Source: a virus
Taxonomy: Duplodnaviria > Caudoviricetes
Reading direction: 5' to 3' (one strand)
IMG/VR virus record: IMGVR_UViG_3300005662_000128
Coordinates: 1-32,632 of that record
Length of the DNA: 32,632 nt
Shown: in pieces, positions 16,710-32,556 of the stretch
How positions within the stretch are numbered: position 1 is the first letter of the stretch
Layout of the letters: the number at the start of each line of letters is the position of its first letter
Notes under the pieces: generated by a model
What the model was told of the DNA's origin: nothing
Databases searched by the model: none
Seen by the model: only the letters and a program-made list of their open reading frames with translations
Translations under genes and position numbers: made by a program

Positions 16710-16733
16710 GGTTCTCACCAGTAGTTTAGCGAT

Positions 16734-16810: not shown

Positions 16811-16860
16811 ATGGTTTGCTATCGCAAACGGTCGGTGCTTCGCACCTCCTCGGATTCAGC

Positions 16861-17247
16861 TCAGGGGCTCACATTGGCGCACAATGCCGCCACCATCTGA
16901 GCTTCCCCAGGTTTCGCACCCTTCGCGATGGGACTGCGCCAACCAGTCCACTTACTGGCTTCAGTGACATTAATCTTCAGAGCAGAACAGCTGACAGCGA
17001 CGGAAGTGGGAGTCTGAGCCGACTCCCCTTTACATGTCCGGAAGGTAGTTCTCACACCGTCCTTACTAAGTTTCCACTGATCCCAGAGATAAGTGCATTC
17101 CGAGAATGTTTTTTCCGTAGCAACAGCCGGCGCTTGCTCCATTATCTTTTGAAGGATCTCCTGTTGACGGTTCTTGGTTGGTTCTGGTTGAACAACAGGG
17201 GGAAGTTCAGGGAGAGCGGTTGCGAGGAGTGCCATCATGTCGATCAT
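16861..17247 (-). CDS. putative secreted Cys-containing protein
   Basis: Hydrophobic N-terminus; 4 Cys; VAVSC..LKIN pattern. Confidence 0.75.
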   Translation of the reverse strand: MIDMMALLATALPELPPVVQPEPTKNRQQEILQKIMEQAPAVATEKTFSECTYLWDQWKLSKDGVRTTFRTCKGESAQTPTSVAVSCSALKINVTEASKWTGWRSPIAKGAKPGEAQMVAALCANVSP

Positions 17248-17251
17248 ATCT

Positions 17252-17776
17252 TCAAGGAGTGGTGAGAGGTACGTTATTCATGAAGTCATTGATGCTAGCA
17301 TTACTCACACAGTTCTGCAACTGCCCCACAGTGTAGACACCGTATTTATTAGCGAGATAAGATTCGCACCGTCGAATGTTGCCCACTTGCCTGGGTGGAG
17401 CAGTGTACGCATTTCTTTTAGGGTCATAAGGCGCTTCGTAACTCACTTGGTACCTTTGCTTGCATGAGTAAGGATCAAGGGAATCGACCACTTTCTTGAC
17501 GTTCTTTTCAATGCTATCTAAATGGGAATTCGCAATGACGTCATTGTTAGCGGACACTCCATTCAGTTGAAATGCCTTGAGCAAAGATTGCCCCACATCC
17601 GAAATTCCTGGGAAAGTCTGCCGATTGTTCCGAGCATTGCAAATAACATACGCTTGCAGAACGGAAATGCTCTGGATTTGCTTATCAGTCAAATACTTCA
17701 GAGGAGCGGCGTAAGACGGTAGACACGAAAACAAAGCTGATGCAGAAATCAGAGTTTTCAGGAGAGACCTTTTCAT
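17252..17776 (-). CDS. putative secreted protein
   Basis: Signal MKRSLLKTLISASALFSCLPSYA; Cys pairs. Confidence 0.75.
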   Translation of the reverse strand: MKRSLLKTLISASALFSCLPSYAAPLKYLTDKQIQSISVLQAYVICNARNNRQTFPGISDVGQSLLKAFQLNGVSANNDVIANSHLDSIEKNVKKVVDSLDPYSCKQRYQVSYEAPYDPKRNAYTAPPRQVGNIRRCESYLANKYGVYTVGQLQNCVSNASINDFMNNVPLTTP

Positions 17777-17783
17777 TGTCAAT

Positions 17784-18029
17784 CTAGTACACATTGGGGC
17801 ACATGGGCTTGACATCTTTCATGATGACGTTTGCCAGGTACTTTGGTTGACCACGACCAATCAACATTTGCTCCAACATATACTTACCAGAGATACCGTC
17901 TTGGTTAGCCATGCGAAGAGCAGAGCAGATGCGATACTTCTCGGCAGAAGATGTAGGGCTTTGAGCCAGAGCGGGGAACGAAGCGGTTGCAGTGCTCAAG
18001 AACAGAGCAGCAGCGATCAGTTTTCTCAT
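17784..18029 (-). CDS. small secreted protein
   Basis: Signal MRKLIAAALFLSTATASFPALA; IC...CP pair. Confidence 0.8.
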   Translation of the reverse strand: MRKLIAAALFLSTATASFPALAQSPTSSAEKYRICSALRMANQDGISGKYMLEQMLIGRGQPKYLANVIMKDVKPMCPNVY

Positions 18030-18045
18030 GTTCTCTTGGAAAGTC

Positions 18046-18135
18046 GGGAGAAACAACTTCCCCCATGAGTTAAATATAGCTCAACCCGCGAAATAAGTAA
18101 AGCCCTATGCAAGAAAAAAGGACGGTCGCCCGTCC
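18046..18135 (-). promoter_or_regulatory. terminator plus promoter module, copy 3
   Basis: GGACGGGCGACCGTCCTTTTTT; TTTACT-17nt-TATATT 18073-18101. Confidence 0.75.
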
Positions 18136-18142
18136 CTCTTTC

Positions 18143-18598
18143 TTATCCCCATTTGCTGTAATCAGTTGGAGGAGTAGTTGCTGCGACGGTCCGTTTCTTT
18201 CGGTTGAATCTCTTGTCGTTAGCTTCCATCAGCCCTTCTCTCACAACTTTGGTGCTAAAGAAGAATCGCTTTCCTTCGTGGTTTTCAACCACCCATGGGT
18301 TGGCATTTCTGCGAGGATCCACATCCACCAAGGTGAAAGTCTGATGACCCAGTGAATCAACTTTGAATGGCTGCTGGATGTTTAAAGACTCATGGCCTTC
18401 CACCAACAGCATCTTCCAGCAATCTATCCGCCGCATCCTTGCTTGCGTGGAGGTAGTTTCAAAGGCGAAGTGCAGATTGTTGTCAGGAGTGCGACCAAAC
18501 CGAAAATCAGAGGCTAACTCCATGTCTCGTTTAGACAGTATCGACCGGACGGCTTCTTGCAGTTCTCGTTTCAGGTCAACAATCGTTTCTTGGTTCAT
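18143..18598 (-). CDS. hypothetical protein
   Basis: 151-aa ORF in operon order. Confidence 0.75.
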   Translation of the reverse strand: MNQETIVDLKRELQEAVRSILSKRDMELASDFRFGRTPDNNLHFAFETTSTQARMRRIDCWKMLLVEGHESLNIQQPFKVDSLGHQTFTLVDVDPRRNANPWVVENHEGKRFFFSTKVVREGLMEANDKRFNRKKRTVAATTPPTDYSKWG

Positions 18599-18616
18599 GT
18601 TAAGATTAAATTGAAA

Positions 18617-18898
18617 TTAGCGGCGCACGCGCCCAAGGTACTTAACCGCATGCATCAGATTAGCTACATCGTCTTCCCATGCAATCCGGCTGGTGGTGTC
18701 CAGGGCTGGACCCTGCTCTTTCAGGAAATCAACATGGTAATACATAATCAGTTCGGCCAGCTCCAACGTCAAGCCAATCACATCACAGGGGTGAGCCTGA
18801 TTCTCATTGAGAACTGAGACGACCTGTTGAAACAGAGTTTCGGTGATCTGCATTTCGGCAAGCTCTTTTGGAGTGTCAGGAACTTTTGTTTCTTTCAT
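18617..18898 (-). CDS. hypothetical protein
   Basis: 93-aa ORF. Confidence 0.75.
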   Translation of the reverse strand: MKETKVPDTPKELAEMQITETLFQQVVSVLNENQAHPCDVIGLTLELAELIMYYHVDFLKEQGPALDTTSRIAWEDDVANLMHAVKYLGRVRR

Positions 18899-18950
18899 GG
18901 TAGTTTAAGCAACAGTAGACCAGAACAATTTAAGTATACCATTTATTACC

Positions 18951-19190
18951 TCAGATAGCAACCCCCCTGTTCTCGAAGAAGGTCTTAAATTCCTCATCCG
19001 TAGTATTGTCTTCCAAGGTGTCAATCAGCTCGCCATCATTCATCTCATCGAGCATCTCTCCATTTGTGCTGGTGAAGAAATACTGCAGATCCTTCACACT
19101 TGAATTATCGAGCCAACGCAAAACCACGAAATCGCGGATGGCTTCGCGCTGTTCCTGGGAAAGTTTTTTCTTGGTAACAATAAAGGGCAT
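18951..19190 (-). CDS. small acidic helical protein
   Basis: 79-aa ORF; pattern shared with 23993-24714 and 28193-28414. Confidence 0.75.
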   Translation of the reverse strand: MPFIVTKKKLSQEQREAIRDFVVLRWLDNSSVKDLQYFFTSTNGEMLDEMNDGELIDTLEDNTTDEEFKTFFENRGVAI

Positions 19191-19241
19191 TGACGTGGTT
19201 TGAACCCGACAAAATAACTATAGCTCTAAACAATCTCAATG

Positions 19242-19277
19242 AAAAAGGGGGTGACGGCCCGAAAACCACCACCCCTC
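19242..19277 (-). terminator. intrinsic terminator
   Basis: GGGGTG...CACCCC TTTTT. Confidence 0.55.
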
Positions 19278-19297
19278 TTTCAAAATGCCGACTGAAC

Positions 19298-19729
19298 TCA
19301 GCGGCAGTTACGCAAAACGTGATTGAAAATACGCTCGCGATCAGCACGGGGTAGTTCTTGCAGCTGATTTGCAAACAGCTCAGCAGGCACTTCGACTATT
19401 TTGCTAAGCCAATGTACACCGAATACAGAGGAATCTGCATTCTTCGAAGCAGGCCAGATTGTACGAGCAACTCCAGACATGGTGCTACCAGTGGCAACAC
19501 CGACTTGTGCGTACCACCGGTTCCCCGATTTGGCGTAGTTAATTACAGGAGTGTTGGGAGAGATTGTCTTGCGCTTACCGCTAACAACCAGACCATGAGC
19601 TTGGCCAATAGCCAGATGCTCAAGAGGAGTGGCTTCTTTGATGTTTAAACCAGCAGGCGTGTAATAAAACGCAGCGTATGACTCCTCGGTTTGTAGGACT
19701 GGAGCTGTGTAGGTTTCTGATTGAGTCAT
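19298..19729 (-). CDS. hypothetical protein (143 aa)
   Basis: ATG 19729 avoids overlap with the upstream gene. Confidence 0.75.
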   Translation of the reverse strand: MTQSETYTAPVLQTEESYAAFYYTPAGLNIKEATPLEHLAIGQAHGLVVSGKRKTISPNTPVINYAKSGNRWYAQVGVATGSTMSGVARTIWPASKNADSSVFGVHWLSKIVEVPAELFANQLQELPRADRERIFNHVLRNCR

Positions 19730-19814
19730 GTTAAACCGTAGGTATTGTAGGTTATTTGAACCGGTGAAGAGGCTCTCACGAACCAACACCAAGTTTACCT
19801 CACAATGGGCTGAC

Positions 19815-20042
19815 TCATTCACTCTGCGCAGAGCCTTCCGCAAACAGCTCCCTAATGTCAATTTCTCGTTGGCATTCTCGTCTCAGCCACTCGCAGACCG
19901 CATACACTTCGGTCTTGCAATCAAACACCTGAGCCGCTAGGCGCAAATCACGACTGGGATACTCGAATTCATCGAGCATGAGTTTGAGAGCTTTTACATA
20001 TTTCGCGTCATTCATGGTCTCAATTTTCATCGTCTGTGCCAT
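19815..20042 (-). CDS. hypothetical protein
   Basis: 75-aa ORF. Confidence 0.65.
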   Translation of the reverse strand: MAQTMKIETMNDAKYVKALKLMLDEFEYPSRDLRLAAQVFDCKTEVYAVCEWLRRECQREIDIRELFAEGSAQSE

Positions 20043-20676
20043 GCATCAGATCTTTCCAACCAGGAGCCACATATTGGCAACGCCATCCCTTGTGATGTTG
20101 ATTGGGATATTTGGCTGTTTGAAACATGTGCCGATCATCCAGACCCATTTCTTTACAGAACTTAGCTAAACCGCGTATCCGGTAAACGTTGCCTTCCGGG
20201 TCAATAACGATGAACTCTTTACCAGTCTCTTTATGTTTCCCTAATTCTTTATTTCTACGGTAGGTCTCAGCCCTCTTTCTGTTTATTTCTGCCAGTTTCT
20301 CTGGGTCTTTTGTTAAGAACCCGATGCCTTCTTCCGCTGCTTTCTTGCCCCATTCTTTGGCGGCCTCTTTCACTGGCTTGTTGCTCTTCAATCGCTTGGC
20401 ACTGCGATAGAACTTCCGAGCAATTTTTTCCAACTTGGATCGATGCGCACCCAGCTTATTATCCGCCTTCCTCCACTGCTTACCCAGCTCTACAAAAATT
20501 TCGCGATCTTCTCGTTTGCCTGTCAGACCCCATTTCAAGTAAGCCATGCAGAATTGCTTACGCAGGGAGAGGTCGCCGACCTTTTCAAGCCGAGCACTCA
20601 CGTAATAATATGTGTCCACCAGCGTGCGCCAATGCGTCTTCGGCATTTTAGCGTAACTGCCTCTCTTCTCCGTCAT
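20020..20676 (-). CDS. basic NUMOD-type DNA-binding protein, homing endonuclease-related
   Basis: C-terminal IDPEG...GL.KFC.E.GL...HHKGW. Confidence 0.65.
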   Translation of the reverse strand: MTEKRGSYAKMPKTHWRTLVDTYYYVSARLEKVGDLSLRKQFCMAYLKWGLTGKREDREIFVELGKQWRKADNKLGAHRSKLEKIARKFYRSAKRLKSNKPVKEAAKEWGKKAAEEGIGFLTKDPEKLAEINRKRAETYRRNKELGKHKETGKEFIVIDPEGNVYRIRGLAKFCKEMGLDDRHMFQTAKYPNQHHKGWRCQYVAPGWKDLMHGTDDEN

Positions 20677-20882
20677 TTAACAAACAATCCAGCAATGTTA
20701 ATTCCGAGCATGGTGGAGATAACCATGATGACATCCCACATTCGCTCTTTATAAAAATAAGGCAAACTAAATATGCTGCTGAAAATGATGATGGCTAACC
20801 CGATACGGCGTGATACAAACAGCAAAATATATTGGCCCAAAATCAGGCCAAAATTGCTCATCACTCTGAGACGCGCCATCAT
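20673..20882 (-). CDS. small membrane protein
   Basis: Three hydrophobic segments; coupled overlaps. Confidence 0.7.
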   Translation of the reverse strand: MMARLRVMSNFGLILGQYILLFVSRRIGLAIIIFSSIFSLPYFYKERMWDVIMVISTMLGINIAGLFVK

Positions 20883-21010
20883 TGCTCATGATACCCGATT
20901 ATGACATAGCCCTGGTTGCGTAATTCATCGAGAGCATGTTTACCCCAAGGAACAAAGCGCCATTCGGTTTTACCACCAGGCAGCAATAAATGCACCCATA
21001 TGTAGCGCAT
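20879..21010 (-). CDS. hypothetical protein (43 aa, MRYIWVHLLLPGG...)
   Basis: Fills the gap; ATGA overlap. Confidence 0.55.
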   Translation of the reverse strand: MRYIWVHLLLPGGKTEWRFVPWGKHALDELRNQGYVIIGYHEQ

Positions 21011-21035
21011 TGTTATTCTTAAACTCTAAGTTCTC

Positions 21036-21929
21036 TTACCCGACTTTCAATGCCTTTTTGATTTTGTCCAAGCGAGAAGGCTTCAGGTATGAGCGGAATT
21101 CCAAATCTTGGAAGATGGAAATGATCGCCTGCTCATGAGGAGCCGAAGAAGCAAACCAACGCAAATCAGGGACGTCATGCTCAAGAGTGACTAAGCGCAA
21201 ATTGGCGAGAAACACTCCTGCATTTTCACGCACCTTTGGGTGCATACAAATACGATCTGCACCCGTAAAATCACCGATCGGTTCGTCTGGCTTAGGAGTG
21301 CAATCCTGAATAATCTTCACAGCAGTTTTGGGGCCGATCCCTTTGATGCCGGCGACATTATCACTAGAATCACCAGCCAACGCTTTGAAGTATTTAACGT
21401 CAGCAGGATAAACGCCGAATATGTCTACAACACCGTCGATGTCTACTTCTCTGATTTTCTTCGCTGAGTTAAACAGCAGGACTTTGACCCGATTAGTAAC
21501 AAGTTGAAGCAAATCTTTATCACACGTTAGGATAAAAATCTCTTCGTAACCAGGCGATTTGCGCGAGATTGTGGCGATAACATCGTCCGCTTCAAAACCA
21601 GGAATACCGATCGGAGTGAAACCGAGGGACGGTAACACATCTTGAACCAGCAGATTCATGTCCGCATAATGCGCAATGCCAGAAGGGTCGCGATTCGCTT
21701 TGTAATCAGCATCCTCCTTTTTCCTCCAGTTATTTCCTGCATCATACACTGGCACCACCGAGTCAAACTGGTATTTCTCGATGATCGCAAACAAGGAGTT
21801 GCAGAATGCGTAAGTCCCAGTAGTCGGAATGCCAAACGAAGTCTGCATTTCACCCATTGTCCGAGTGAGCGCAGCCCTGCTTCTGTGGAAAAGGGCGTTC
21901 GTGTCAATCAGAAGTAAACGTTTCAGCAC
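21036..21929 (-). CDS. 5'-3' exonuclease / flap endonuclease (Pol I N-terminal domain)
   Basis: LLID, YKANR, EADD, DKD, ALAGDSSDN..GI.GIGPKTA. Confidence 0.93.
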   Translation of the reverse strand: MLKRLLLIDTNALFHRSRAALTRTMGEMQTSFGIPTTGTYAFCNSLFAIIEKYQFDSVVPVYDAGNNWRKKEDADYKANRDPSGIAHYADMNLLVQDVLPSLGFTPIGIPGFEADDVIATISRKSPGYEEIFILTCDKDLLQLVTNRVKVLLFNSAKKIREVDIDGVVDIFGVYPADVKYFKALAGDSSDNVAGIKGIGPKTAVKIIQDCTPKPDEPIGDFTGADRICMHPKVRENAGVFLANLRLVTLEHDVPDLRWFASSAPHEQAIISIFQDLEFRSYLKPSRLDKIKKALKVG

Positions 21930-22627
21930 AGCTTAGATTCGACTTGAACGTAGGTATTGTTGGTTACATTATAGGCAGTGAGAACCCCTGTGTAAACCGC
22001 GCCGCTGTCTATACAAATTCCACCAGGCACCTCGTAAGGCATTCCCGTCATCTCGTCCCACTCGCCAAACTCAGGTGTGTGACCGAACACCACTTGTTTA
22101 TACGTTTTGGTCCATGACCTTAACTTAGCACCTTTTTTGACAGTACGGCGTTGCCATACAAAATCTTCACGTTTGTATGCACTCTGCATGTAAGTTGCAG
22201 GATCTTCACCAGGAGGTGTTCCGGCATGCGCAAAGATCGTTTTTCCCACGGTCATATAGTAAGGCAAAGCACTCATCCAACCCGCATGTTTATGAAGCTC
22301 TCTTAGCTTGTCATAAGCTCCCCCATTATCGATCCACAAGTCGTAATCTTCGTACTCTAGCGCCTTTAGAAACATGTCTTCGTGGTTACCGCGCAACACG
22401 TAGAAACTGTTTAGGCCCCAAGAGTTTGGATCATTTAAAAGAGCTTTGGCAAGCTCAAGCACACCGACGTCGTCCGGGCCTCGATCAATCAGATCACCGA
22501 GACAAATGACGGTAGCGTTGGTATCGCGCAGTTTTTCCATCATCGCGCGAAATAGGTCTAGCCTGCCGTGGATATCTCCGATGGCAATTACGCTGTTATT
22601 TGTGAAAGAGTCAGTAACATTAATCAT
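21923..22627 (-). CDS. Ser/Thr protein phosphatase (calcineurin-like metallophosphoesterase)
   Basis: GDIHG, GDLIDRG, RGNHE, HAG, GHTP, IDSG. Confidence 0.92.
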   Translation of the reverse strand: MINVTDSFTNNSVIAIGDIHGRLDLFRAMMEKLRDTNATVICLGDLIDRGPDDVGVLELAKALLNDPNSWGLNSFYVLRGNHEDMFLKALEYEDYDLWIDNGGAYDKLRELHKHAGWMSALPYYMTVGKTIFAHAGTPPGEDPATYMQSAYKREDFVWQRRTVKKGAKLRSWTKTYKQVVFGHTPEFGEWDEMTGMPYEVPGGICIDSGAVYTGVLTAYNVTNNTYVQVESKLC

Positions 22628-22635
22628 GGCTTAGT

Positions 22636-23115
22636 TTACTCGTTAACCATGTCATTTTCATTATCGACGGCTGTGAACACAACGTGGTCAAATCCCTCGA
22701 AATCAATTGTCTTCAAAGATTTCTGCAGCTCAGAGTGCATGTCCTTAATTACGTAATCAGGGACAGAACGTTCCCGCTTGAAATTGCGAGCAAGGCAAGT
22801 GGCTAAAGAAGGGTTTAGAACGACAGCCCTGATCTCAGTGTAACCGAAGCTGCTTAGTAGAGAAAGAATCTCATGCCGATAATCGCGGCGGAAGTGCGTG
22901 CCATCGACAACTAGGTTAAGTCCGCAGCTTTCTGAAACAGCTTCTTCAACTGCTTCCCAAATCTCACCCCAATTCCCCTGAATCTCGGGCGAACCATATA
23001 AACGGGAACGAATATCGTCATAACAAATTACTGTAGCGTTTTCGCGCTCGGCCAGGCGAGTGGCATAGGTGCTTTTTCCGGACCCAGGAGCACCCACCAT
23101 GACAAATGCCTTCAC
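22636..23115 (-). CDS. P-loop kinase (AAA_33 / polynucleotide kinase-like)
   Basis: GAPGSGKST, DDIR, VVDGT, RN..RER.VP; GTG start. Confidence 0.88.
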   Translation of the reverse strand: MKAFVMVGAPGSGKSTYATRLAERENATVICYDDIRSRLYGSPEIQGNWGEIWEAVEEAVSESCGLNLVVDGTHFRRDYRHEILSLLSSFGYTEIRAVVLNPSLATCLARNFKRERSVPDYVIKDMHSELQKSLKTIDFEGFDHVVFTAVDNENDMVNE

Positions 23116-23303
23116 AGAGACTCCATCATGCGCTTGATGCACTGAAGTGTTTGCCTTGAGTAGCCAGCCGTGTGAGCGTAGCCTTTCTCCCTGTAGTTTT
23201 CCTCAGTGAGGGCGTCCTCATAAGCGAATTCCGCTGCTGCAATCAGCTTAAGAATCTCTTCTTTCGTGGTTTGATCAACGAATGGTTTGTTCGTGGGGTC
23301 CAT
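23112..23303 (-). CDS. hypothetical protein (63 aa)
   Basis: ATG 23303 downstream of the promoter. Confidence 0.65.
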   Translation of the reverse strand: MDPTNKPFVDQTTKEEILKLIAAAEFAYEDALTEENYREKGYAHTAGYSRQTLQCIKRMMESL

Positions 23304-23328
23304 GGTGAAATCGATTTCCGATAACCCG

Positions 23329-23357
23329 AGTATAGCGGTATATGCGCAAAAAGTAAA
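23329..23357 (-). promoter_or_regulatory. sigma70-like promoter
   Basis: TTTACT-17nt-TATACT. Confidence 0.7.
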
Positions 23358-23358
23358 G

Positions 23359-23577
23359 TCAGTGAAATGTTGTGGCGTAATAGAATTTGCATTCCTCAAC
23401 CCACTCCTTAAGCGGGTCATCTACCACATCATTTTGTTTTCGCAAATATGCTTCTACAGTCCACACTGTTTCCCGCAGCTCCAAATCATTCCAAGGTCGG
23501 TCTACAACCAAAATCTTAAGCGTGTGAGCGCGAAGAATCTTGCGCAGCTTTTCTTGCAGCTTCTTTGGGTCTTTCAC
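23359..23577 (-). CDS. hypothetical protein
   Basis: 72-aa ORF about 25 nt after GGGTAAAA. Confidence 0.6.
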   Translation of the reverse strand: MKDPKKLQEKLRKILRAHTLKILVVDRPWNDLELRETVWTVEAYLRKQNDVVDDPLKEWVEECKFYYATTFH

Positions 23578-23615
23578 GACGGAGCTGATTCAGTTACCGG
23601 GTTTTACCCGATGCC

Positions 23616-23741
23616 TTACTCGGAACACTCCACTTTTGCGTAACATTCAAAGTCAGAGTTGGCGGAGGAATCGCGAATCGCTAGGGCTGTTACTCCGGTA
23701 ATGAGGGCAACAGCAATGAGGCACAGATACCGAGTCTTCAT
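23616..23741 (-). CDS. tiny secreted or membrane protein (41 aa)
   Basis: MKTRYLCLIAVALITGVTALA signal. Confidence 0.55.
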   Translation of the reverse strand: MKTRYLCLIAVALITGVTALAIRDSSANSDFECYAKVECSE

Positions 23742-23746
23742 GGCAT

Positions 23747-23878
23747 TCAAAGGTAGGAGAGAGTGAAATGACGACCTTGCTCTCGCAACAGACTGATGGT
23801 CTCGCGCCATTCGGGGTCACTCTTTTCGAAGCTAACGTTGATTCGCCGGGTTCCGAGGAAGTAGGAAATGAGAACCAT
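23747..23878 (-). CDS. hypothetical protein (43 aa, MVLISYFLG...)
   Basis: Directly after promoter 23903-23931. Confidence 0.5.
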   Translation of the reverse strand: MVLISYFLGTRRINVSFEKSDPEWRETISLLREQGRHFTLSYL

Positions 23879-23902
23879 GGTTGATGAAACATCCATGGGC
23901 TA

Positions 23903-23963
23903 AATATAGCGTGAAAATTGCCAAAAAGAAAGCGGCTTTCTGAAAATCAGAAAGACCGCCTTC
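23903..23963 (-). terminator. terminator overlapping a promoter (TTTCTT-17nt-TATATT)
   Basis: GCGGTCTTTCTGA TTT TCAGAAAGCCGC TTTCTTTTT. Confidence 0.7.
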
Positions 23964-23992
23964 GTCCCTTAGGGTGTTAAATTGTCAAGTAT

Positions 23993-24714
23993 TCAAGCAG
24001 GAACAGCTTCGCCTTCCGGGGCAGCTTCCTCGGCCGGAGCTTCGGGCACTTCAAGATTGAAGGCTTCGAGAATGTCGCTGTAACCAGCTGCAGAGATAGA
24101 GCGGATCACATCTTCATCAGACAGATTGCCGATTGCGGCTTGCACAGCCTCTGAATAACAAGTGTTATCGCGGAACTCTTTATTTCCGCTTCTTACTGTT
24201 TCCAGTAAGTTCAGACTATATCTTCACCCGTTTACGGGGCAGGGCATTCGTGGATCCATTACTGAGTTTCCTCTCGGGATCTAGTCGTTGAACCTTCCAG
24301 CTTGTAGGCTGGCTTGGCTGCTGATTTCCCTCGGCTTAACGTTAGGGGGTCCCAGCAATTAACCCTGTTTGCTGTAAGAATTACTTCTTACAGGAGCCTA
24401 TTCAGTTGACCCGGATCAGTTCACGCACACGTGATCCACAAGTTTACCATTCTTGTGGGGTGGACTATATCTTCAACCGATGCGGTTGTCGGGCGCTTTA
24501 ACCTGTCATTAAGGGGGCTTTACCCCTCAGGTAGTCTCTGAACGTTCCCCAAGTGTACTTGGGGCTTCGCTGCTGATTGACCGTGTTAGGAGGCTTTCCA
24601 GCAATTCACCCGATGATTAACCCAATGATTACTCAATGGGGCCCCAGCGATTTAGGGCGCGTTCTCAATCACACGACTGGTGAGAACATTTACGACTTCG
24701 GTACGGTTTTCCAT
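23993..24714 (-). CDS. spliced 81-aa protein; exons 24714-24654, 24427-24409, 24158-23993
   Basis: Joined exons give 246 nt: MENRTEVVNVLTSRVIENAPLRELIRVYSEAVQAAIGNLSDEDVIRSISAAGYSDILEAFNLEVPEAPAEEAAPEGEAVPA. Confidence 0.85.
24159..24408 (-). ncRNA. group I intron 2 (250 nt, ORF-less, subgroup IA-like)
   Basis: P AATTGCTGGGA, Q AATCAGCAG, R TCAACGACTA, S AAGATATAGTCT; P10 CTGAATAG/TTATTCAG; terminal G. Confidence 0.92.
24428..24653 (-). ncRNA. group I intron 1 (226 nt, ORF-less, subgroup IA-like)
   Basis: P1 GCCCU/GGGGC with U.G at the splice site; P AATTGCTGGAAA, Q AATCAGCAG, R TCAGAGACTA, S AAGATATAGTCC; P3 TCGGGTG/CGCCCGA. Confidence 0.92.
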
Positions 24715-24734
24715 TTTTGTAAAAAGTAAGTTTG

Positions 24735-25475
24735 CTATTCCCAAAGAAAGATAAATGCTTTTTCTTCGGGTGTAAGTTCGACACGTTTTGAGGTGTCTAT
24801 TCCACGGGCTTTCTGGTAAATCTTCAGAGGCCCAGGGGTGCTTATGTGGCCTGTCTTCAGGCACATGAATTTTCTGTTGTTTGCGGCCTTCATGGGGTCA
24901 AATATGCCGGTTTTATTTTGAAAGGTCTTAGGGCCATTTATTTTTCCGGATTTACGGCCAGCTTTACGACTACCCTCTCTACAAATTTCTTTGTTAGCGG
25001 GGTCATGGATGCCGGTTTTTTGGTCTCTGGCCCTAGGTCCTTGAATTAAGCCACCGATCCTGCCATCTTGGGACATTTTCTCGGGACTTCTGCCGCATAC
25101 GCCGGTTTTATTGATGAAGTTGGTTTTACCGCCAATTTTTCCTCCCCAGTTAGGTTTCCCAGGGAAACTGGAGCCGCAGTTGGATTTGGTGTGAAGATAC
25201 CATTCTTCGCCCATAAATTCCAACAAAACCCACTCTCCTGGAAGATCTTTCTCAAGATCTGCTCCAACTAAGAAAAGACAAAGATCTCCGGGATTAACCG
25301 GTATTGTCCCAATCTCGTCGTGAGCAACTCGCCAGGGCAAGAATCGATTGTTCTTTGATTTGTTGACGCTTTCTTCCCTTTCTTCAAGATTCAAAGAAAC
25401 GCTCAACCCACAAATAAGTTGGTAGTTCCTTCCTTCTTTCCAAATAGGGTCTATGTGGTCAATTTGAAGATTCAT
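24735..25475 (-). CDS. free-standing HNH endonuclease with Gly/Lys-rich DNA-binding repeats
   Basis: IDHIDP...ICGL.V..NL......N.SK.N; repeated KTG(I/V) units. Confidence 0.75.
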   Translation of the reverse strand: MNLQIDHIDPIWKEGRNYQLICGLSVSLNLEEREESVNKSKNNRFLPWRVAHDEIGTIPVNPGDLCLFLVGADLEKDLPGEWVLLEFMGEEWYLHTKSNCGSSFPGKPNWGGKIGGKTNFINKTGVCGRSPEKMSQDGRIGGLIQGPRARDQKTGIHDPANKEICREGSRKAGRKSGKINGPKTFQNKTGIFDPMKAANNRKFMCLKTGHISTPGPLKIYQKARGIDTSKRVELTPEEKAFIFLWE

Positions 25476-25542
25476 TTCGCGGTCGCTTTGAGTTGCGACA
25501 CCCTTATTATAGCAAAATGGCAAGATGGTAAACTCTTGCCAA

Positions 25543-25626
25543 TAGGGTGAGAGGGAGTTGAACCCTCACAGGCAAATGCCCGACGGATTTTAAATCCGGT
25601 GCGTCTACCAATTCCGCCACCACCCC
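25543..25626 (-). tRNA. trnL: tRNA-Leu(TAA)
   Basis: Cloverleaf with long variable arm; loop TTTAAAA; no encoded CCA. Confidence 0.93.
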
Positions 25627-25629
25627 AGG

Positions 25630-25702
25630 TGCTCCCTACGTGGATCGAACACGTCTGAGGCCGATTATGAGTCGGCTGCTTTCACCAGATAGCTAAGGGA
25701 GC
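25630..25702 (-). tRNA. tRNA with CAT anticodon (elongator Met or Ile2)
   Basis: GCTCCCT/AGGGAGC acceptor; GCCGA CTCATAA TCGGC. Confidence 0.9.
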
Positions 25703-25718
25703 ATGCCATTAGCCTACC

Positions 25719-25961
25719 TCACTTCAACCCATATTCAGTCTGAGCCAGCATGCCAATTGCTTTTTCCACGAAGTAGAATTGATCGGTACCGACCCGCTCC
25801 ATCACTCGATTAAGAAGCACTCGAGTCACTTCTTTGTCTTTGCTCTTCATTTTGGTACCGCACCAGAACTTGCCGTGCACATAAACCAGTTCTTCAACAG
25901 TTTCACGGAGGACTTTGTCATCCGACTGGAGCCAGGTTTGGAAAGGAAGAGCGAAGGCCAC
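25719..25961 (-). CDS. hypothetical protein
   Basis: 80-aa ORF. Confidence 0.7.
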   Translation of the reverse strand: MAFALPFQTWLQSDDKVLRETVEELVYVHGKFWCGTKMKSKDKEVTRVLLNRVMERVGTDQFYFVEKAIGMLAQTEYGLK

Positions 25962-25995
25962 GTTTGGTGAAATTTCCTTACCTGAATAGTTTACC

Positions 25996-26268
25996 TCATG
26001 GCAGCCTGTTGTAAACCCCTAAAAAACTGCTGCGCAGTCTTACATCTAGAACAGGAATTTCTGGACTTTTCGCCGCCTTCTCCAGATCTCTCTTACTTGC
26101 CCAATACAGCCTCAGATCAACGCGACCATCTGGATATATGGTTGCGGTTTTGCGAATGTAACCCCGCTGTTGCATCAACCAAGGTTCCCAGATTGCCGTG
26201 TCAGCATCAATGAAGTCATTGACTCGATCCGCAGGAATAATAATGAATGAAAGCTTCTCAATTTCCAC
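25996..26268 (-). CDS. cyanobacterial TIGR03792-like dimeric alpha-beta barrel protein
   Basis: IE.L.F....FI.AD..IW.PWL..Q.G...K pattern. Confidence 0.65.
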   Translation of the reverse strand: MEIEKLSFIIIPADRVNDFIDADTAIWEPWLMQQRGYIRKTATIYPDGRVDLRLYWASKRDLEKAAKSPEIPVLDVRLRSSFLGVYNRLP

Positions 26269-26527
26269 GCCATTCCTCCCACTTGTCGATTGGGCAACGA
26301 ACATTTGCCATGGCTGTCTTCAACTTCATGTAACACTGGCAGAGAGAACACTGCCCAGACTTAGGCAAATAACGGTCGCAATTCTCGCAGATAGCCAGCC
26401 TTTCAGCTGCAACAGCCCTGGGAGCTACGGTTGGATCTTCAAGGAGCCGCTTAGCAGTGTCTTTAATCGAAGCAGCGAAACTTCTCCTACAGCACTCTGG
26501 CGCGTCGTCATTCATTTCTAATCCCAA
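26258..26527 (-). CDS. DUF6171-like Cys-rich protein
   Basis: ERL.IC..C, C..C.C, CP..KW. Confidence 0.75.
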   Translation of the reverse strand: MGLEMNDDAPECCRRSFAASIKDTAKRLLEDPTVAPRAVAAERLAICENCDRYLPKSGQCSLCQCYMKLKTAMANVRCPIDKWEEWRGN

Positions 26528-26970
26528 TATTGTCCGAGAGTGCGCAAATGCGAAAGTATTATACTGCCTTCAACAGCGCGGTAAACCGACGGCAACGTTC
26601 TGTGTTTTTTGTAATGCTCCAGCTCTGCGACGATGGCGCGAGTCACGGTGCAATCGGCAACCCACTGTCGAAACCAGAAACAGTCGAATTTTTCGATGCG
26701 CCTCCACTGGGGATCTTCATGGACCCAAGCTTTCCCGTAACCGTCGTACCGTTCCTTTAAATCCCAGTGGCTGCAAATCCATTCTTCGTAGCGCTCCGGG
26801 TCATCCACAGTAAGCACCTTGTGATATTCCTCCGACCATGCCTTCGCCTGATTCCACAGGAAATCATAACTCCCCGGATCGCGATCGCATTTGAACACGC
26901 AGTTGACGACCAAAAATGGAACGTCATTGCCTTTGGCGTCAACGCGTAAACTCGTAATTGTTAGTGTCAT
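26518..26970 (-). CDS. hypothetical protein
   Basis: 150 aa from ATG 26970. Confidence 0.7.
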   Translation of the reverse strand: MTLTITSLRVDAKGNDVPFLVVNCVFKCDRDPGSYDFLWNQAKAWSEEYHKVLTVDDPERYEEWICSHWDLKERYDGYGKAWVHEDPQWRRIEKFDCFWFRQWVADCTVTRAIVAELEHYKKHRTLPSVYRAVEGSIILSHLRTLGQYWD

Positions 26971-27023
26971 TTGTATAGCAAAACAGGGAGGGTTGCCCCT
27001 CCCGTAAATCAACAAGACTAAAT

Positions 27024-27860
27024 TCAGACTGCAGCCAACTCAAGGCCAGCACGAAGAGCCCGATTGTTGACGCGCGAACCTTGGCCAAACTGGACGTAAT
27101 TGAAACGACCTGAAGTCGTTTGACGTGAGTTGTTCGAGCCGTAATCTAACACAGCTTGGTAAGCATCGTGGTAAGTCTGGCCTGAGTTACCCGCTCCTTC
27201 ATAAAACAGTTTGTTCAATTGATCCACGAAGCTAACACGCAGTTCGTTGAGCGGCTTTTCGTAAACAGCTTCGACATAAGCATCAAACTGCTTTTTCGAA
27301 CACTTGCCCTTGGTAAGTTCAGCCATGTACTTGCTGTAGGTTCCCATCGCACCATTTACATAATCAAGGATAAAGGTGCTTTCTAGAACTTTTTCGGTAA
27401 CGCCTGAGGAATGCCGATACTTCTCAGAAATGTCCGAATAGGCGCCCGCAAAAGTGTTACCGCAAATAACACGAGTCAGGGTTGAGCCGATAGCCACAGA
27501 AGCATTGCCAATGTGGCCATTGAGCAAAGTCACGTAGCCTTTGTAGTCTTCCCCAATTACACTAAACTCTTTATTGAGTTTGGCTTGAGCAAAGACCCGA
27601 GCGCCATGATTGAGATAACCCATGTTCTCAATCGTGAGAACCCCCTCATCAACCATCGGTTGAATCAGCTTGAGAAGGTCAGAGTTCTGTACCGTTTCAA
27701 ACGATGGAGCTACAGCACCGAGGCAACGACCGGTGTCTTCTCGAACTACAGCCACCTTTTCGCTCCAAGCAACTTGTTTGCCGTCAACCCCAGTGAAATA
27801 AAGTGGGCGGTGGCTGATGAGCCAATCAAGGTTGTCCGTGACAGCGAAGGCAGGAGCCAT
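27024..27860 (-). CDS. DUF932 family protein
   Basis: LDW, VRED...LG.V, VQN, G.L..G.RVF, LLNGH.G, RVICGNT. Confidence 0.88.
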   Translation of the reverse strand: MAPAFAVTDNLDWLISHRPLYFTGVDGKQVAWSEKVAVVREDTGRCLGAVAPSFETVQNSDLLKLIQPMVDEGVLTIENMGYLNHGARVFAQAKLNKEFSVIGEDYKGYVTLLNGHIGNASVAIGSTLTRVICGNTFAGAYSDISEKYRHSSGVTEKVLESTFILDYVNGAMGTYSKYMAELTKGKCSKKQFDAYVEAVYEKPLNELRVSFVDQLNKLFYEGAGNSGQTYHDAYQAVLDYGSNNSRQTTSGRFNYVQFGQGSRVNNRALRAGLELAAV

Positions 27861-27890
27861 GGTTTTACTGGTTGTTCTGAATCCGAAGAT

Positions 27891-27919
27891 ATTTTACGCT
27901 GAAAAAGTGTTTTTGAAAA
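27891..27919 (-). promoter_or_regulatory. sigma70-like promoter
   Basis: TTTTCA-17nt-TAAAAT. Confidence 0.45.
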
Positions 27920-27920
27920 G

Positions 27921-28139
27921 TCAACGGACGCAGTAATTGCGAGCCGAGCGCGTCCACCCCAGAGGGCAAGGGCCCCCATTGTTGATGTAGACTTGGGTGT
28001 TACCGACCGGTACGCAAGAGCCACTCTGGCTGGAGGTGCCTGTGGGGCAAGAGCCACCGATTTTTGGGACAGGTACGCTTTGAGCCAGTACGGCTTGACC
28101 AACGATGCAGGCGCCGAGGCAAAAGAGGAATGACTTCAT
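27921..28139 (-). CDS. small secreted protein with two GGxCPxG...C repeats
   Basis: Signal peptide; GGSCPTG and GGPCPLG. Confidence 0.8.
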   Translation of the reverse strand: MKSFLFCLGACIVGQAVLAQSVPVPKIGGSCPTGTSSQSGSCVPVGNTQVYINNGGPCPLGWTRSARNYCVR

Positions 28140-28162
28140 GGCAGGAATTTGAACCTAACAAT

Positions 28163-28191
28163 ATGTTAGCTCTCACTCGCCAAAATGTAAA
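28163..28191 (-). promoter_or_regulatory. sigma70-like promoter
   Basis: TTTACA-17nt-TAACAT. Confidence 0.55.
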
Positions 28192-28192
28192 G

Positions 28193-28414
28193 TCACCCTG
28201 GCACTTTTTCTTGGAATTGCTCCACCAGGTCAGGAGCATACTGCTCAGCATGCATCCAAAGGTCTGACCAGTCCTGCCAGACAAGATCTTCATATAGACG
28301 ATCCCACACTGATTGCCGCAGTTGCTCTAGTGTCATTTCCGAAATCATTCCGTCTACGATCTCAGAAACCAGATTTTCGCGATCTTCTTCAACCCAGTTG
28401 TTAGGCAGCATCAT
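28193..28414 (-). CDS. small acidic helical protein
   Basis: 73-aa ORF. Confidence 0.75.
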   Translation of the reverse strand: MMLPNNWVEEDRENLVSEIVDGMISEMTLEQLRQSVWDRLYEDLVWQDWSDLWMHAEQYAPDLVEQFQEKVPG

Positions 28415-28569
28415 ACAGCTTGATCCCTCAGTTGCTTGTAAACTTCTTCAATGTCGATTTCGCCCTGGATGTACTTTTGAGCGAGACCAATTTTATTGAG
28501 ATAAATCACTTCATCCAGTGAAAACACGGATGACAAGTATTTATCTCGGGATTCTTGCGGCGTTGACAT
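28411..28569 (-). CDS. hypothetical protein (52 aa)
   Basis: Fills the gap; ATGA overlap. Confidence 0.6.
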   Translation of the reverse strand: MSTPQESRDKYLSSVFSLDEVIYLNKIGLAQKYIQGEIDIEEVYKQLRDQAV

Positions 28570-28571
28570 AA

Positions 28572-28871
28572 CTAGGTAATTACAAATTCATCAGTGCGTT
28601 GTTGTTGCATCTGAGATACACGAAGAAGGACAAGATAGCCAATTAAGTCGAGAATTACGTCCTCGTCCTCATCCATTGGCTGGTTACGGATGCGACTCAA
28701 CTTGTCATCCAGGCGAACTCTGATGGCCGCTTGGCTGTCAGCTTGGCTGAAGATACGAACAGGGTTTAAGGCGGAGTCGCCGTATTTCTTGTTCTTTTCT
28801 AACAGCAATGCCTTGATAGCATCACAGGTAACAGCGATGTCAATTTGAGCCTGAGCGATTTTGTTCATCAC
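28572..28871 (-). CDS. DUF1599 / nucleotide modification-associated domain 1 protein
   Basis: KN..YGDS, R.DDKL.RI, ED...DL.GY. Confidence 0.8.
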   Translation of the reverse strand: MMNKIAQAQIDIAVTCDAIKALLLEKNKKYGDSALNPVRIFSQADSQAAIRVRLDDKLSRIRNQPMDEDEDVILDLIGYLVLLRVSQMQQQRTDEFVIT

Positions 28872-29068
28872 AATTTCCCTCCGACAGTTCCTTCGTGTAC
28901 GACGACATTATCGTTATCCCATCCCTCCTGTAAACTCTTCAAATACCACCGTGTTGCGGTAATGCATTGTTCTTCGGTCAGAGAAGTGATGTGTTCTTTG
29001 CCATGGGCATCAACGGAAACGAATGTCCCCCAACGTTGACGCTTAATCCAAAAGGCGTCATCAATCAC
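28868..29068 (-). CDS. cyanophage-type hypothetical protein
   Basis: IDDAF...WGT...ATR.YLK..QEG...VGGKL; start uncertain. Confidence 0.65.
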   Translation of the reverse strand: MIDDAFWIKRQRWGTFVSVDAHGKEHITSLTEEQCITATRWYLKSLQEGWDNDNVVVHEGTVGGKL

Positions 29069-29243
29069 GGGAGTCTCTTCCGGCTTGCCAACCCAATTGC
29101 CATGCTGTTCTGATCCACTCATAAAGTCGCTCTTTGTTTCCGTATTCAGCATCGTCGAAGAATCGCTCCGAGCGAGTGTCAAATCCTTCGATTTCTTCGA
29201 ACCACGCAAGGAATTTGCCATTGTCAGAAATAGGGTTAGTCAT
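29061..29243 (-). CDS. cyanophage-type hypothetical protein
   Basis: WF.EIEGF..RSERF.DD. Confidence 0.65.
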   Translation of the reverse strand: MTNPISDNGKFLAWFEEIEGFDTRSERFFDDAEYGNKERLYEWIRTAWQLGWQAGRDSRD

Positions 29244-29553
29244 GTTGCCTCCAATCCGAGCTGTCCTCACGCTTAAACCAGTTAGCGAGATCCACAGGGT
29301 TTTGAGGGCCAATTAAATGGTTCGAAGGATCTGGATCACCAAGGTCTAGACCCTCCATCAATTCGTCAAGAGAATCTTTTTCCGGCTCACCTGTAATTGC
29401 CCGACGACGCGCCTTCCTTAAAATCGCTGCTGCAGAATTATTATGGTCAGCCCATTTTTGAGCCCACTGCATTTCTTCAAAGGAAACATTCAGCCCTCCT
29501 GCGATGCGGGCAGCGATATCCTCAAGGCGCAGCCTTGTTTGCGTTGAAAGCAT
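29236..29553 (-). CDS. cyanophage-type hypothetical protein
   Basis: MLST..RLRLE...LGDPDPSNH...DWRQ.D. Confidence 0.8.
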   Translation of the reverse strand: MLSTQTRLRLEDIAARIAGGLNVSFEEMQWAQKWADHNNSAAAILRKARRRAITGEPEKDSLDELMEGLDLGDPDPSNHLIGPQNPVDLANWFKREDSSDWRQHD

Positions 29554-29593
29554 TATGGTTTCCCAGATGGATAAGTTTTACCTTACTTTTCAG

Positions 29594-29809
29594 TTAGTGA
29601 AACAAATGCGTGTCTGATTCTACGCAGTAATCTTCATAAGCACTTTGAAACTTGCGTCGCACTGACAGGAAATCTTCATCATAAGAGGCTGCTGCACGAA
29701 ACTCAATTGCCTCAAGCGCAGCGCAAAGTTCACCTTTAGTGAACATCATGCAAACGTCGCCGGTTTCATAAATGGCAAGCTCGTCAATGTGCCTAATTTT
29801 CGCACTCAT
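29594..29809 (-). CDS. hypothetical protein
   Basis: Coupled ORF. Confidence 0.65.
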   Translation of the reverse strand: MSAKIRHIDELAIYETGDVCMMFTKGELCAALEAIEFRAAASYDEDFLSVRRKFQSAYEDYCVESDTHLFH

Positions 29810-29961
29810 CGCTCTTGTTCCTGGTTCTGGTTGTAATACATAGGAAAGAGTGCCGAAAGAATGGCATCAGCAGCGTTATAAACTTTTCCGCCGACAAGGC
29901 ATTCCTGAATTTGATATTTTCGGAGCAGTTGATACAACTGTCGATACTCGTCCTGCGTCAT
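29806..29961 (-). CDS. hypothetical protein (51 aa)
   Basis: ATGA overlaps on both sides. Confidence 0.6.
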   Translation of the reverse strand: MTQDEYRQLYQLLRKYQIQECLVGGKVYNAADAILSALFPMYYNQNQEQER

Positions 29962-30134
29962 AACTCTGCCCCTATTTTATCGGCGAGGTGGTTGCAGATC
30001 CCGTGTTCTCGCCAAAGAATCTCGTAATATGTGCCCTGTTCACCAAGGCTTTTCATTTTGTTGTAATGATCTCGAGCATGAGCTCGCAGTGCCTGGTGGA
30101 TTCTCATCCAGTCGTCCCGGCAAAATGTTAACAT
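29958..30134 (-). CDS. hypothetical protein
   Basis: 58 aa from ATG 30134. Confidence 0.6.
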   Translation of the reverse strand: MLTFCRDDWMRIHQALRAHARDHYNKMKSLGEQGTYYEILWREHGICNHLADKIGAEL

Positions 30135-30325
30135 GCGTAAGGAAATACCATACACATGTAACATAGTTACAGCTTGTCCGGGTAAACGGAATTGCCTTTA
30201 CCTTCAAGCGATTTCACTAACAACTCAGTGTATTTTTCTTGAAAGTCAGCACCATAAGCCATCAAATTTGCGTTCAGATTGTCTCGAACTTGAAGCAGCT
30301 GCTCCCATTCGTGGTCTTCCATGGT

Positions 30326-30601
30326 TCAGAATACGTCGTTCGGTTGGAATTCGATGGGTCCAGCTGCCCAATTAACAAGCTGGTCACCCAAGTTTAAGGC
30401 ACTTTCCGGAGAAAGCAAGATTTCTTCAAAATCTCTGTAACGAGACCGGCGCCCTAAAATGTAGTGGAAGGCGTGAATTAAGCGCCTATGCCAAGGCAGG
30501 GGCGCTAAGTGTATCTCGATTGTTAAGTCTTCCTCGTTTGCGCATACGAAGAAAATGTGCTCCGATCTGAAACACTCGCAGGAGTAGAGTGTCCTTTTCA
30601 T
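30326..30601 (-). CDS. hypothetical protein
   Basis: 91-aa ORF; CxC...H N-terminus. Confidence 0.7.
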   Translation of the reverse strand: MKRTLYSCECFRSEHIFFVCANEEDLTIEIHLAPLPWHRRLIHAFHYILGRRSRYRDFEEILLSPESALNLGDQLVNWAAGPIEFQPNDVF

Positions 30602-30602
30602 T

Positions 30603-30989
30603 TTAGGTTATATGAATGACGGGCACTTGATTCTTTTTCAGCATCTGAATGTTCGCCAAATTGTCGTCAACCCATAACATTGGCTGTCCGTGTTTCTCCT
30701 GCATGTTCCTTAAATGCTCAAGTTTAATGAGCGGATCGGGCACGCCATCTTTATCCTCCGGTCGCATATATATCTCTACGGGGTAAATGCCATGCTTGTT
30801 CAGCCAAGACTCCGTAACATGCCGAAGAGATTCAGGTCGAGCAGTAGAGATAAGTAAGGGTCTTTCTAGTTGTAAAACCATGGCCAGGATGACCATGGTT
30901 GGGTTTTCTTTCAGAGTTAACAGGTTACTTTCGTCGTATGGCTCTGCGGTCAGCGTTCCGTCCACATCAAACGTAACGGGCGCTTTCAT
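30603..30989 (-). CDS. HAD phosphatase (PNKP 3'-phosphatase-like)
   Basis: FDVDGT, STAR, T..WL, MR, D...K, VDD. Confidence 0.88.
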   Translation of the reverse strand: MKAPVTFDVDGTLTAEPYDESNLLTLKENPTMVILAMVLQLERPLLISTARPESLRHVTESWLNKHGIYPVEIYMRPEDKDGVPDPLIKLEHLRNMQEKHGQPMLWVDDNLANIQMLKKNQVPVIHIT

Positions 30990-31225
30990 ACCACTCTCGC
31001 TTGCAATCGGTCAAGGCGCATCAGCAAGGCGTTCATCTTAGTAGCTTCATTCTGGGCTTCTTGTAGTTGCCCACGTGTCACATATGTGGCGATAGTTTGG
31101 CTGTGTTGATTGCGATACGTTGTCGCAAAAGACTCAAGAGCCTGACTGATTACCAGCCACTCATTGTTGCTTAGAGTGACAGACCTCTGCAGCTCCTGCT
31201 CTTCAGTGATTATGACCAGATCCAT
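30986..31225 (-). CDS. hypothetical protein
   Basis: Coupled ORF. Confidence 0.65.
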   Translation of the reverse strand: MDLVIITEEQELQRSVTLSNNEWLVISQALESFATTYRNQHSQTIATYVTRGQLQEAQNEATKMNALLMRLDRLQARVV

Positions 31226-31451
31226 CGCGTTCTTTAATAAGTTCTTTGGCTAGTTTGTCAGCGTTTTTTAGAATTTCATGCCGCACCCACGGACTTTCTG
31301 GATGATACCGAATACGATACCATTGCCGTTCTGACCACACTTTCAGTAGTTTAGATTGTAACACTAACCACGGAAAGATATAATCATCTAAGGCGACTGC
31401 ATATAAAATACAGGCTCCAATTGTGAACCAGGTTAGTGTTACTACATTCAT
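31203..31451 (-). CDS. hypothetical membrane protein
   Basis: N-terminal TM segment. Confidence 0.7.
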   Translation of the reverse strand: MNVVTLTWFTIGACILYAVALDDYIFPWLVLQSKLLKVWSERQWYRIRYHPESPWVRHEILKNADKLAKELIKERDGSGHNH

Positions 31452-31633
31452 TTGTTTCTATTGTCAGATACAACGAGATCAGCGTCAATGGCACGGAGCC
31501 AACGGTTCAAAGTTTTAAGCAATTTAGCATCGTCCACGTTTTCCACGTCCATATTGACATTAAGGTCTGTGTCCCGAGTGTCCTCGTCGTCCGCGCGGAA
31601 GGATAAGGAAATGTAGTTTTTGTTGCTATACAT
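31448..31633 (-). CDS. hypothetical protein (61 aa)
   Basis: ATG 31633. Confidence 0.6.
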   Translation of the reverse strand: MYSNKNYISLSFRADDEDTRDTDLNVNMDVENVDDAKLLKTLNRWLRAIDADLVVSDNRNK

Positions 31634-31844: not shown

Positions 31845-31845
31845 T

Positions 31846-32154: not shown

Positions 32155-32174
32155 GGCCGCAGAAGCAATTACCG

Positions 32175-32553: not shown

Positions 32554-32556
32554 GAG

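Follow-up and report, generated by a model that had tools for sequence, protein, structure and literature searches.

Introduction

A short phage gene interrupted by more than one group I intron has a precedent in Staphylococcus phage Twort: orf142, later assigned as a tail tube gene, is described as carrying three such introns and undergoing exon skipping (PMC11878797, PMC3073962). Small exons between introns are described for Bacillus phages in the same papers, and PMC11878797 places most split phage genes among the core nucleotide and DNA genes. The catalogued multi-intron phage genes have two or three group I introns each, with small internal exons; they serve DNA metabolism or packaging as core functions, and their introns have a mean length of about 800 nt. 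In cyanophage S-PM2 the psbA intron and the free-standing F-CphI constitute a case of collaborative homing (PMC6083498, PMC3984707 and PMC2988022), and in psbA of Synechococcus phage S-CBWM1 (MG450654.1) two group I introns are annotated, of which one carries a homing endonuclease and the other is ORF-less.

Here we analyse an 81-codon gene in the window, by which we mean the whole 32,632-nt stretch of DNA, i.e. the complete IMG/VR virus record IMGVR_UViG_3300005662_000128, a single uncultured metagenome record estimated to be 15% complete. Two group I introns surround a small internal exon, as in the known multi-intron genes, and the arrangement recalls that of Twort orf142, itself then a short phage gene of unknown function. 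The Twort introns are described as similar to each other, whereas those in the window are unrelated (154 of 265 aligned positions are common to both) and have different nearest kin; orf142 is a tail tube gene, whereas the window protein matches no family above cut-off; and, unlike Twort orf142 as portrayed there, the window's locus occurs in nature in all four states of intron presence. Like S-PM2 psbA (PMC6083498), the gene, in a likely cyanophage, combines an ORF-less intron with a neighbouring free-standing nuclease gene, here a putative one, but the host gene in the window is tiny, there are two introns and the neighbouring putative nucleases are HNH-like or GIY-YIG-like, varying by allele, and not Endo VII-like. 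S-CBWM1 psbA likewise has two introns in one gene, but its exons are long, the host gene is different and S-CBWM1's own copy of the small gene is intron-less. Compared with the catalogue of multi-intron hosts, to which this gene does not belong, the introns of the window's family are short (225-265 nt) and free of ORFs. The element is of a known kind; its host gene appears to be new, and the population evidence for it is unusually complete. We consider it probable that this is a conserved phage gene holding two unrelated ORF-less introns in its most conserved motif, that these are likely self-splicing, and that they likely spread selfishly, through endonuclease-driven gene conversion, instead of acting as a switch.

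Results

Two group I introns in a hidden gene

In the window, genes are encoded on the minus strand; among them are those for a DNA polymerase and topoisomerase II, several HNH ORFs and four tRNAs. Among cultured phages, 11 records match the polymerase, the best being that of S-CBWM1 (55.6% over 97%), the nearest cultured relative, and because all of these are cyanobacterial phages we infer that the virus likely has a cyanobacterial host. Elsewhere in the window a Tet/JBP-type 2OG-Fe oxygenase gene (14639-16033; PF12851, E 1e-14) adjoins a glycosyltransferase-like gene (13779-14591), and the two possibly form a DNA base-modification pair. The initial annotation had called the small gene hidden, which is apt: in the protein collection this contig is represented at the locus by only a 50-aa C-terminal fragment (P0004), so the gene has escaped the gene callers. 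Its parts and neighbours are listed in Table 1.

Table 1. Features of the small gene and its surroundings in the window (coordinates on the 32,632-nt stretch)
Feature	Position	Strand	Remarks
Terminator-like hairpin 3' of the small gene	23936..23954	-	Consensus scan only
Exon 3	23993..24158	-	166 nt including the stop; last base of Val27, then codons 28-81
Group I intron 2	24159..24408	-	ORF-less, 250 nt; Rfam 84.1 bits; 3' hairpin P9.1 covaries, P10 pairs with exon 3
Exon 2 (micro-exon)	24409..24427	-	19 nt; codons 21-27, including the family-invariant E23 and R26; 17 of 19 nt form the loose end of the X1 RNA contig
Group I intron 1	24428..24653	-	ORF-less, 226 nt; Rfam 87.1 bits; covariation; absent from the RNA contig of run X1
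Exon 1	24654..24714	-	61 nt; codons 1-20 and first base of Leu21; no difference from the RNA contig of run X1
Putative free-standing HNH-type endonuclease, 246 aa	24735..25475	-	Between the promoter motif and the small gene
Sigma-70-like promoter motif	25506..25533	-	-35 at 25533-25528, extended -10 at 25514-25506; sequence comparison only
tRNA-Leu(UAA) and tRNA-Met genes	25542..25702	-	Usual upstream neighbours in one set of alleles

Both introns match the Rfam group I model RF00028 over its whole length, intron 1 at 24664-24436 (E 4e-21) and intron 2 at 24418-24192 (E 3e-20), above the gathering score of 50. They are complete and sequence-divergent, make up 66% of the locus and hold no stop-free stretch longer than 43 codons, in agreement with the initial annotation, which had predicted two complete, divergent, ORF-less introns filling about two thirds of it. 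Also as predicted there, the unspliced RNA encodes only 20 aa and skipping of exon 2 shifts the frame; the skipped product has 37 aa, removal of intron 1 alone gives 28 aa, and only removal of both introns yields the 81-aa protein, making both splicing events necessary in this allele.

Both 5' exons end in U and both introns in G, and of 1,200 enumerated sets of U/G junctions 20 stay open for 78-92 aa, so the reading frame alone is ambiguous and leaves junction 2 unfixed. It is fixed by homologues, which match the predicted length over both junctions. A search with exon 3 alone returned 216 proteins, and among the best 120 of these 88 of the 90 full-length homologues (at least 72 aa) span residues 15-35 with the same 21-residue length; the other two are translated through the end of intron 2, and six of the best 120 proteins in all are read-throughs of this kind. 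The 81-aa product is co-linear with intron-less homologues, and the junctions proposed earlier hold to the base. Ending intron 2 where the Rfam match stops (3' site at 24192, giving a 92-aa frame) was rejected, as it adds 11 residues foreign to the intron-less homologues and removes the covarying P9.1.

Each intron has the P3-P4-P6-P7 core with P, Q, R and S, a 5' U-G and a terminal omega-G, and its removal restores the frame. Helices were read by eye from the window introns and mapped on MAFFT alignments of nine unique alleles per intron, without a shuffle control; so assessed, 506 of 513 cells are paired in intron 1, with changes on both sides at 17 of 57 pairs (mainly P2 and P6a), and 490 of 540 in intron 2, with such changes at 19 of 60 pairs and the unpaired cells mostly in P2, P6a, P7.1 and P8, where the alignment is gapped. 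P3, P4 and P7 are fully paired in all nine unique alleles of each intron, and five of the six P9.1 pairs of intron 2 covary. P1 has 4-5 bp and opens with U-G in 17 of 17 distinct junction contexts, and the terminal G is present in all 22 delimited introns. P10 in the window has eight of eight pairs for intron 2 and just three for intron 1. Both P1 and P10 vary in step with synonymous exon bases: P1 of intron 1 follows changes of the Pro20 codon (L041, L118), and P10 of intron 2 follows those of the Tyr28 codon (L105, L119, L126). From group I chemistry, splicing would proceed in two guanosine-dependent steps guided by P1, P10 and P9.0, and would restore the protein.

An RNA-library contig carries junction 1

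Nine RNA runs contain small parts of the locus, which have no bearing on habitat, and six of them were examined (X1, X2 and X6-X9). Metatranscriptome X1 contains a single record on 13000-32632, a 267-nt contig of depth 5 that is identical to 24903-24654 (250 nt) and continues with 17 nt equal to 24427-24411. It joins exon 1 to exon 2 exactly, with intron 1 gone, the short side of 17 nt lying below our 31-nt bridge threshold; it is one contig without strand, RNA libraries can contain DNA and its source could be an intron-less DNA allele. That source is less likely because the junction codons 19-23 of the contig are confined to intron-1 alleles, being present in seven of nine of these and in none of 115 alleles without intron 1 among the loci listed. 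The contig also includes the upstream ORF's 3' end and is compatible with a common transcript for that ORF and the small gene. For junction 2 there is no record of the window strain in the six of nine runs examined; X6, X9 and X2 contain only relatives (an intron-2-like piece, an intron-less allele and unspliced intron-1-only alleles), and X7 and X8 have no matching records at the locus. Taken together, the locus is probably spliced in nature.

The small protein is strongly conserved

The initial annotation had offered two explanations for a pair of introns in so small a gene, an important conserved function or a splicing-gated switch, and the first agrees with the protein itself. Residues 14-32 are 90-100% conserved in 104 distinct alleles among the loci listed, with free variation at synonymous positions. 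Searched with a profile, 1.84 billion representatives yielded 28 proteins, and in 23 of 23 aligned family members E23, R26 and Y28, the residues bracketed by the two introns, are invariant. By this alignment the introns flank the most conserved motif of the protein, and since group I introns favour conserved sites (PMC2814812) two independent insertions would mark codons 20-28 as functionally fixed. A distant homologue (E 1e-5) lies unannotated and intron-less on the plus strand of S-CBWM1 (MG450654.1; L149, about 30,826-31,040), where the record places gp46 on the opposite strand; a phosphatase gene follows downstream, as in the window's neighbourhood.

Four helices (mean pLDDT 86 for the model) are predicted, together with an acidic tail of low confidence. 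Close homologues gave no match above cut-off in Pfam or PHROGs, the protein none under E 0.08 among PDB sequences and none by tblastn against 50,697 phage records, and Foldseek of the model against BFVD and PDB returned no fold match. The best VIA Z is 3.9; three NblA chains appear at Z 3.0 (rmsd 5-7 Å over 48-50 residues), the noise level for helical hairpins, and no NblA-like sequence match was found. DUF7326 (PF24012) is matched by six of 23 wider family members (best E 8e-6) and weakly by six of 45 close members (best E 0.019), whereas three close homologues have no match at E 0.1 and the close intron-less homologue P0005 none either; phrog_1352 is matched by five of 23 family members (best E 2e-4), and Atlas feature matches point toward both at 0.82-0.85. 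Kinship to DUF7326/phrog_1352, both of them small proteins of uncharacterised function, is at most distant, and no function follows from it. We found no paper on the gene, which has no name to search by, and it appears to be new as an intron host; our guess would be that it acts as a small regulator which binds other proteins and is expressed from a promoter of its own.

Both introns are optional and independent

Intron-less alleles, which the initial annotation had proposed seeking, are abundant. A degenerate exon-3 pattern found at least 120 metagenome loci which, with the viral loci, make 147, 145 of them oriented; after removal of 10 duplicates of the same contigs and six intron-less or unclassifiable loci too short upstream, 129 were kept. 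Among these matches 109 are intron-less (89 distinct), six have intron 1 only, six intron 2 only, seven both and one is a truncated intron-2 locus. The seven double-intron loci include the window, L144 (identical to it) and L056 and L112, which repeat the introns of L041 and L099, so that at least four distinct sequence types, the window among them, carry both introns. All insertions are at the same two sites. The 22 delimited introns among the loci listed all measure 225-265 nt and lack an internal endonuclease ORF (longest stop-free stretch 37-83 codons), and identity among alleles is 73-95% for intron 1 and 69-100% for intron 2. The arrangement is therefore not kept as a splicing-gated switch, the second of the two explanations offered earlier, would have led one to expect; related loci have one intron, the other or neither, and the introns are likely self-splicing mobile passengers.

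An exon tree was built from 98 sequences and 189 columns and is weak and prone to recombination; on it the 12 intron rows require nine changes, at least six of them forced by strong branches. Shuffling gives a mean of 11.5 changes and only seven of 500 shuffles are as low as nine, so intron alleles cluster slightly; they are otherwise scattered across the tree. L041 and L082 have an identical intron 2 and exons that differ at 34 of 174 nt, and intron 2 of L408 (in the distant clade L397/L408 of the gene) is identical to that of the window at 226 of 250 positions (90%), the exons at 111 of 189 (59%). By these comparisons intron 2 has evidently crossed between divergent alleles. Exon codons common to intron alleles reach only about three codons from each site, and long co-conversion tracts, looked for among the intron alleles, were not found; the homogeneity near the sites is largely explained by P1/P10 pairing, without co-conversion.

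The introns come from different sources

Nearest to intron 1 are cyanophage psbA introns (76-82%; 76% over 154 nt with that of S-PM2), and the nearest relatives of intron 2 in other genes are introns of phage major capsid genes (77-80%), which points to unrelated introns of separate origins. Scans of viral contigs with 19-nt core motifs found at least 127 intron-1-like loci and 118 intron-2-like loci. The flanks of the former group largely with psbA, the largest cluster comprising 58 upstream flanks, which we take to be psbA from the D1 sequence. One tested host gene of the intron-2 relatives matches a major head protein family, and the other host genes of its best relatives are presumably capsid genes also. 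A first DNA pattern had found a single, unrelated match in viral contigs.

Twelve of the 245 motif loci listed have two or three copies within 1.4 kb (L176, L185, L229, L239, L274, L306, L326, L327, L360, L363, L380 and L405), so the small gene is not alone in having tandem introns of these families; in L306 two copies are merely 276 nt apart, implying another micro-exon. Intron-2-like introns also occur in major capsid genes of several types at differing positions (L303, L360, L361, L398 and others). Relatives with an intron-less small gene have group I intron matches elsewhere (L156/L158 in G004, 43,085-44,309; L157 in G002), those of L156/L158 being 78-80% like intron 1 over 92-123 nt.

Nuclease-like ORFs upstream of the small gene

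In most alleles the small gene is preceded by a sigma-70-like promoter and a conserved leader, and in nuclease-free alleles the promoter motif is directly upstream. The leader lies about 100 to 20 nt upstream of the start, right after the -10 box (e.g. L104, L067, L037, L041). In 85 of the 113 loci that reach far enough upstream (66 distinct), it contains a covarying hairpin with a GAGAG loop that is able to pair with CTCTC further downstream. It is likely an H-type pseudoknot and could be autoregulatory. Seven loci gave no Rfam match at E up to 1, and the leader pattern has no copy in the window and a single one in viral contigs, at the small gene.

The window's HNH-like ORF occupies the place of this leader, and other alleles with the same ORF family likewise have it at that position with the leader replaced, while the leader is intact in alleles with GIY-YIG-like ORFs, these being located upstream of the promoter. 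A short hairpin (25499-25482) precedes the ATG of the window ORF. This ORF has the pattern D-H-x-D-P...N...N...N, with H7, P10 and N29 invariant and D6, D9, N38 and N43 at 90% or more in 50 sequences, and its C-terminal 132 aa are 80% identical to a Pfam HNH protein. It has no direct Pfam, PHROG or fold match, its N-terminal model is at pLDDT 46-70 and the Atlas structure rows with HNH clusters are all under TM 0.5; a U-box-like fold, suggested by weak fold-search rows (E over 0.5), was rejected. On its motif, we regard it as a putative HNH-type endonuclease. The upstream ORF of L041 matches the phrog_314 homing endonuclease (E 1e-16). The window has three more free-standing HNH ORFs (7566-7838, 9850-10398 and 20020-20676), two of them flanking the topoisomerase gene, and any of these could act in trans on the intron sites.

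With nuclease classes set by BLAST clustering and one ORF added by eye (three members being fragments), 73 of 86 loci are distinct and informative, and among these loci listed an upstream nuclease-like ORF accompanies five of seven intron alleles and 11 of 66 intron-less ones (p=0.005) or, with L408 added, five of eight against 11 of 66 (Fisher p=0.01), an association resting on eight intron loci that are not phylogenetically independent. This enrichment suggests collaborative homing. The HNH-like family co-occurs with both introns, with either one only and with none, and each nuclease family is found with differing intron states. L037, L091 and L408 are intron alleles without an upstream nuclease. 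Because the window ORF stands in the leader's place, it may be aimed at the leader and not at the intron sites.

Discussion

In the reading we prefer, a free-standing nuclease such as the HNH-like or GIY-YIG-like ORFs upstream would cut intron-less alleles at or near the insertion sites, and the intron would shield its own allele from the nuclease and then be copied during repair. That collaborative homing, or homing in trans, by such a nuclease is the most likely driver of the spread we judge to be nearly evenly balanced against the contrary. Once occupied, the sites would persist because the P20-Y28 motif does not tolerate change and an imprecise loss of an intron would ruin the protein.

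It is also conceivable, though unlikely, that the introns are real and splicing but were spread by ordinary recombination during co-infection, or by nucleases whose genes lie elsewhere, once rare first insertions (e.g. by reverse splicing) had occurred. The upstream ORFs would then be homing to targets of their own, the leader or the tRNA region, and the association would reflect only shared exposure. The lack of one-to-one pairing between introns and nucleases agrees with such a history, as do the three intron alleles without an upstream nuclease, the 11 nuclease alleles without introns among the loci listed, the very short exon tracts common to intron alleles and the HNH-like ORF's replacement of the leader, which by itself would remove a target there. 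Passive recombination would, however, poorly achieve the placing of intron 2 at exactly the same site in an allele with 59% exon identity, and the nuclease enrichment (p=0.005-0.01) likewise favours homing.

Far less credible is that splicing gates expression, with the ribozymes as a GTP-, light- or energy-dependent switch or with exon skipping giving a second product. Such gating would draw on the need for both splicing events in the window allele, on the absence there of the usual structured leader, by which control could have shifted, and on precedent, since PMC11878797 considers a 'molecular on-switch' as a hypothesis for phage introns and describes exon skipping for Twort orf142 and a SIOphi gene. 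Against this, 109 of the 129 loci are intron-less and, among the matches listed, 12 have one intron, single-intron alleles being as common as double; the skipped product is an out-of-frame 37-aa peptide in which we saw no sign of conservation, and the two introns are of separate origin. That the window gene is a decaying, intron-inactivated pseudogene or its tandem an assembly chimera, a concern with this lone, 15% complete metagenome record, is largely refuted by the intact catalytic cores with covarying stems, the near identity of the spliced protein to intact homologues, the double-intron alleles at six loci besides the window and junction 1 in the RNA-library contig.

Selfish spread of the two introns thus remains our preferred reading. 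A more extended version of it is tentative: the 81-aa protein may be a core factor of S-CBWM1-like cyanophages that has escaped recognition, normally expressed from a promoter of its own and possibly controlling itself via the pseudoknot leader, its invariant motif a homing target contested by several free-standing nuclease families, and the introns, drawn from psbA-type and capsid-type pools, independent shields. If true, nature would here offer collaborative homing with four alleles, in a class of genes not known to host introns and at a size that allows the whole system to be tested.

The locus reveals neither a new splicing mechanism nor a regulatory switch. It points to an overlooked conserved cyanophage gene, missed in the window, where only the 50-aa fragment was called, and in the cultured S-CBWM1, where the annotation is on the opposite strand, and it shows that introns of phages also occur outside the large genes for replication, packaging and photosynthesis. 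With all four combinations of the two introns present in nature beside exchangeable nuclease genes, the locus provides a compact test bed for the spread of ORF-less introns.
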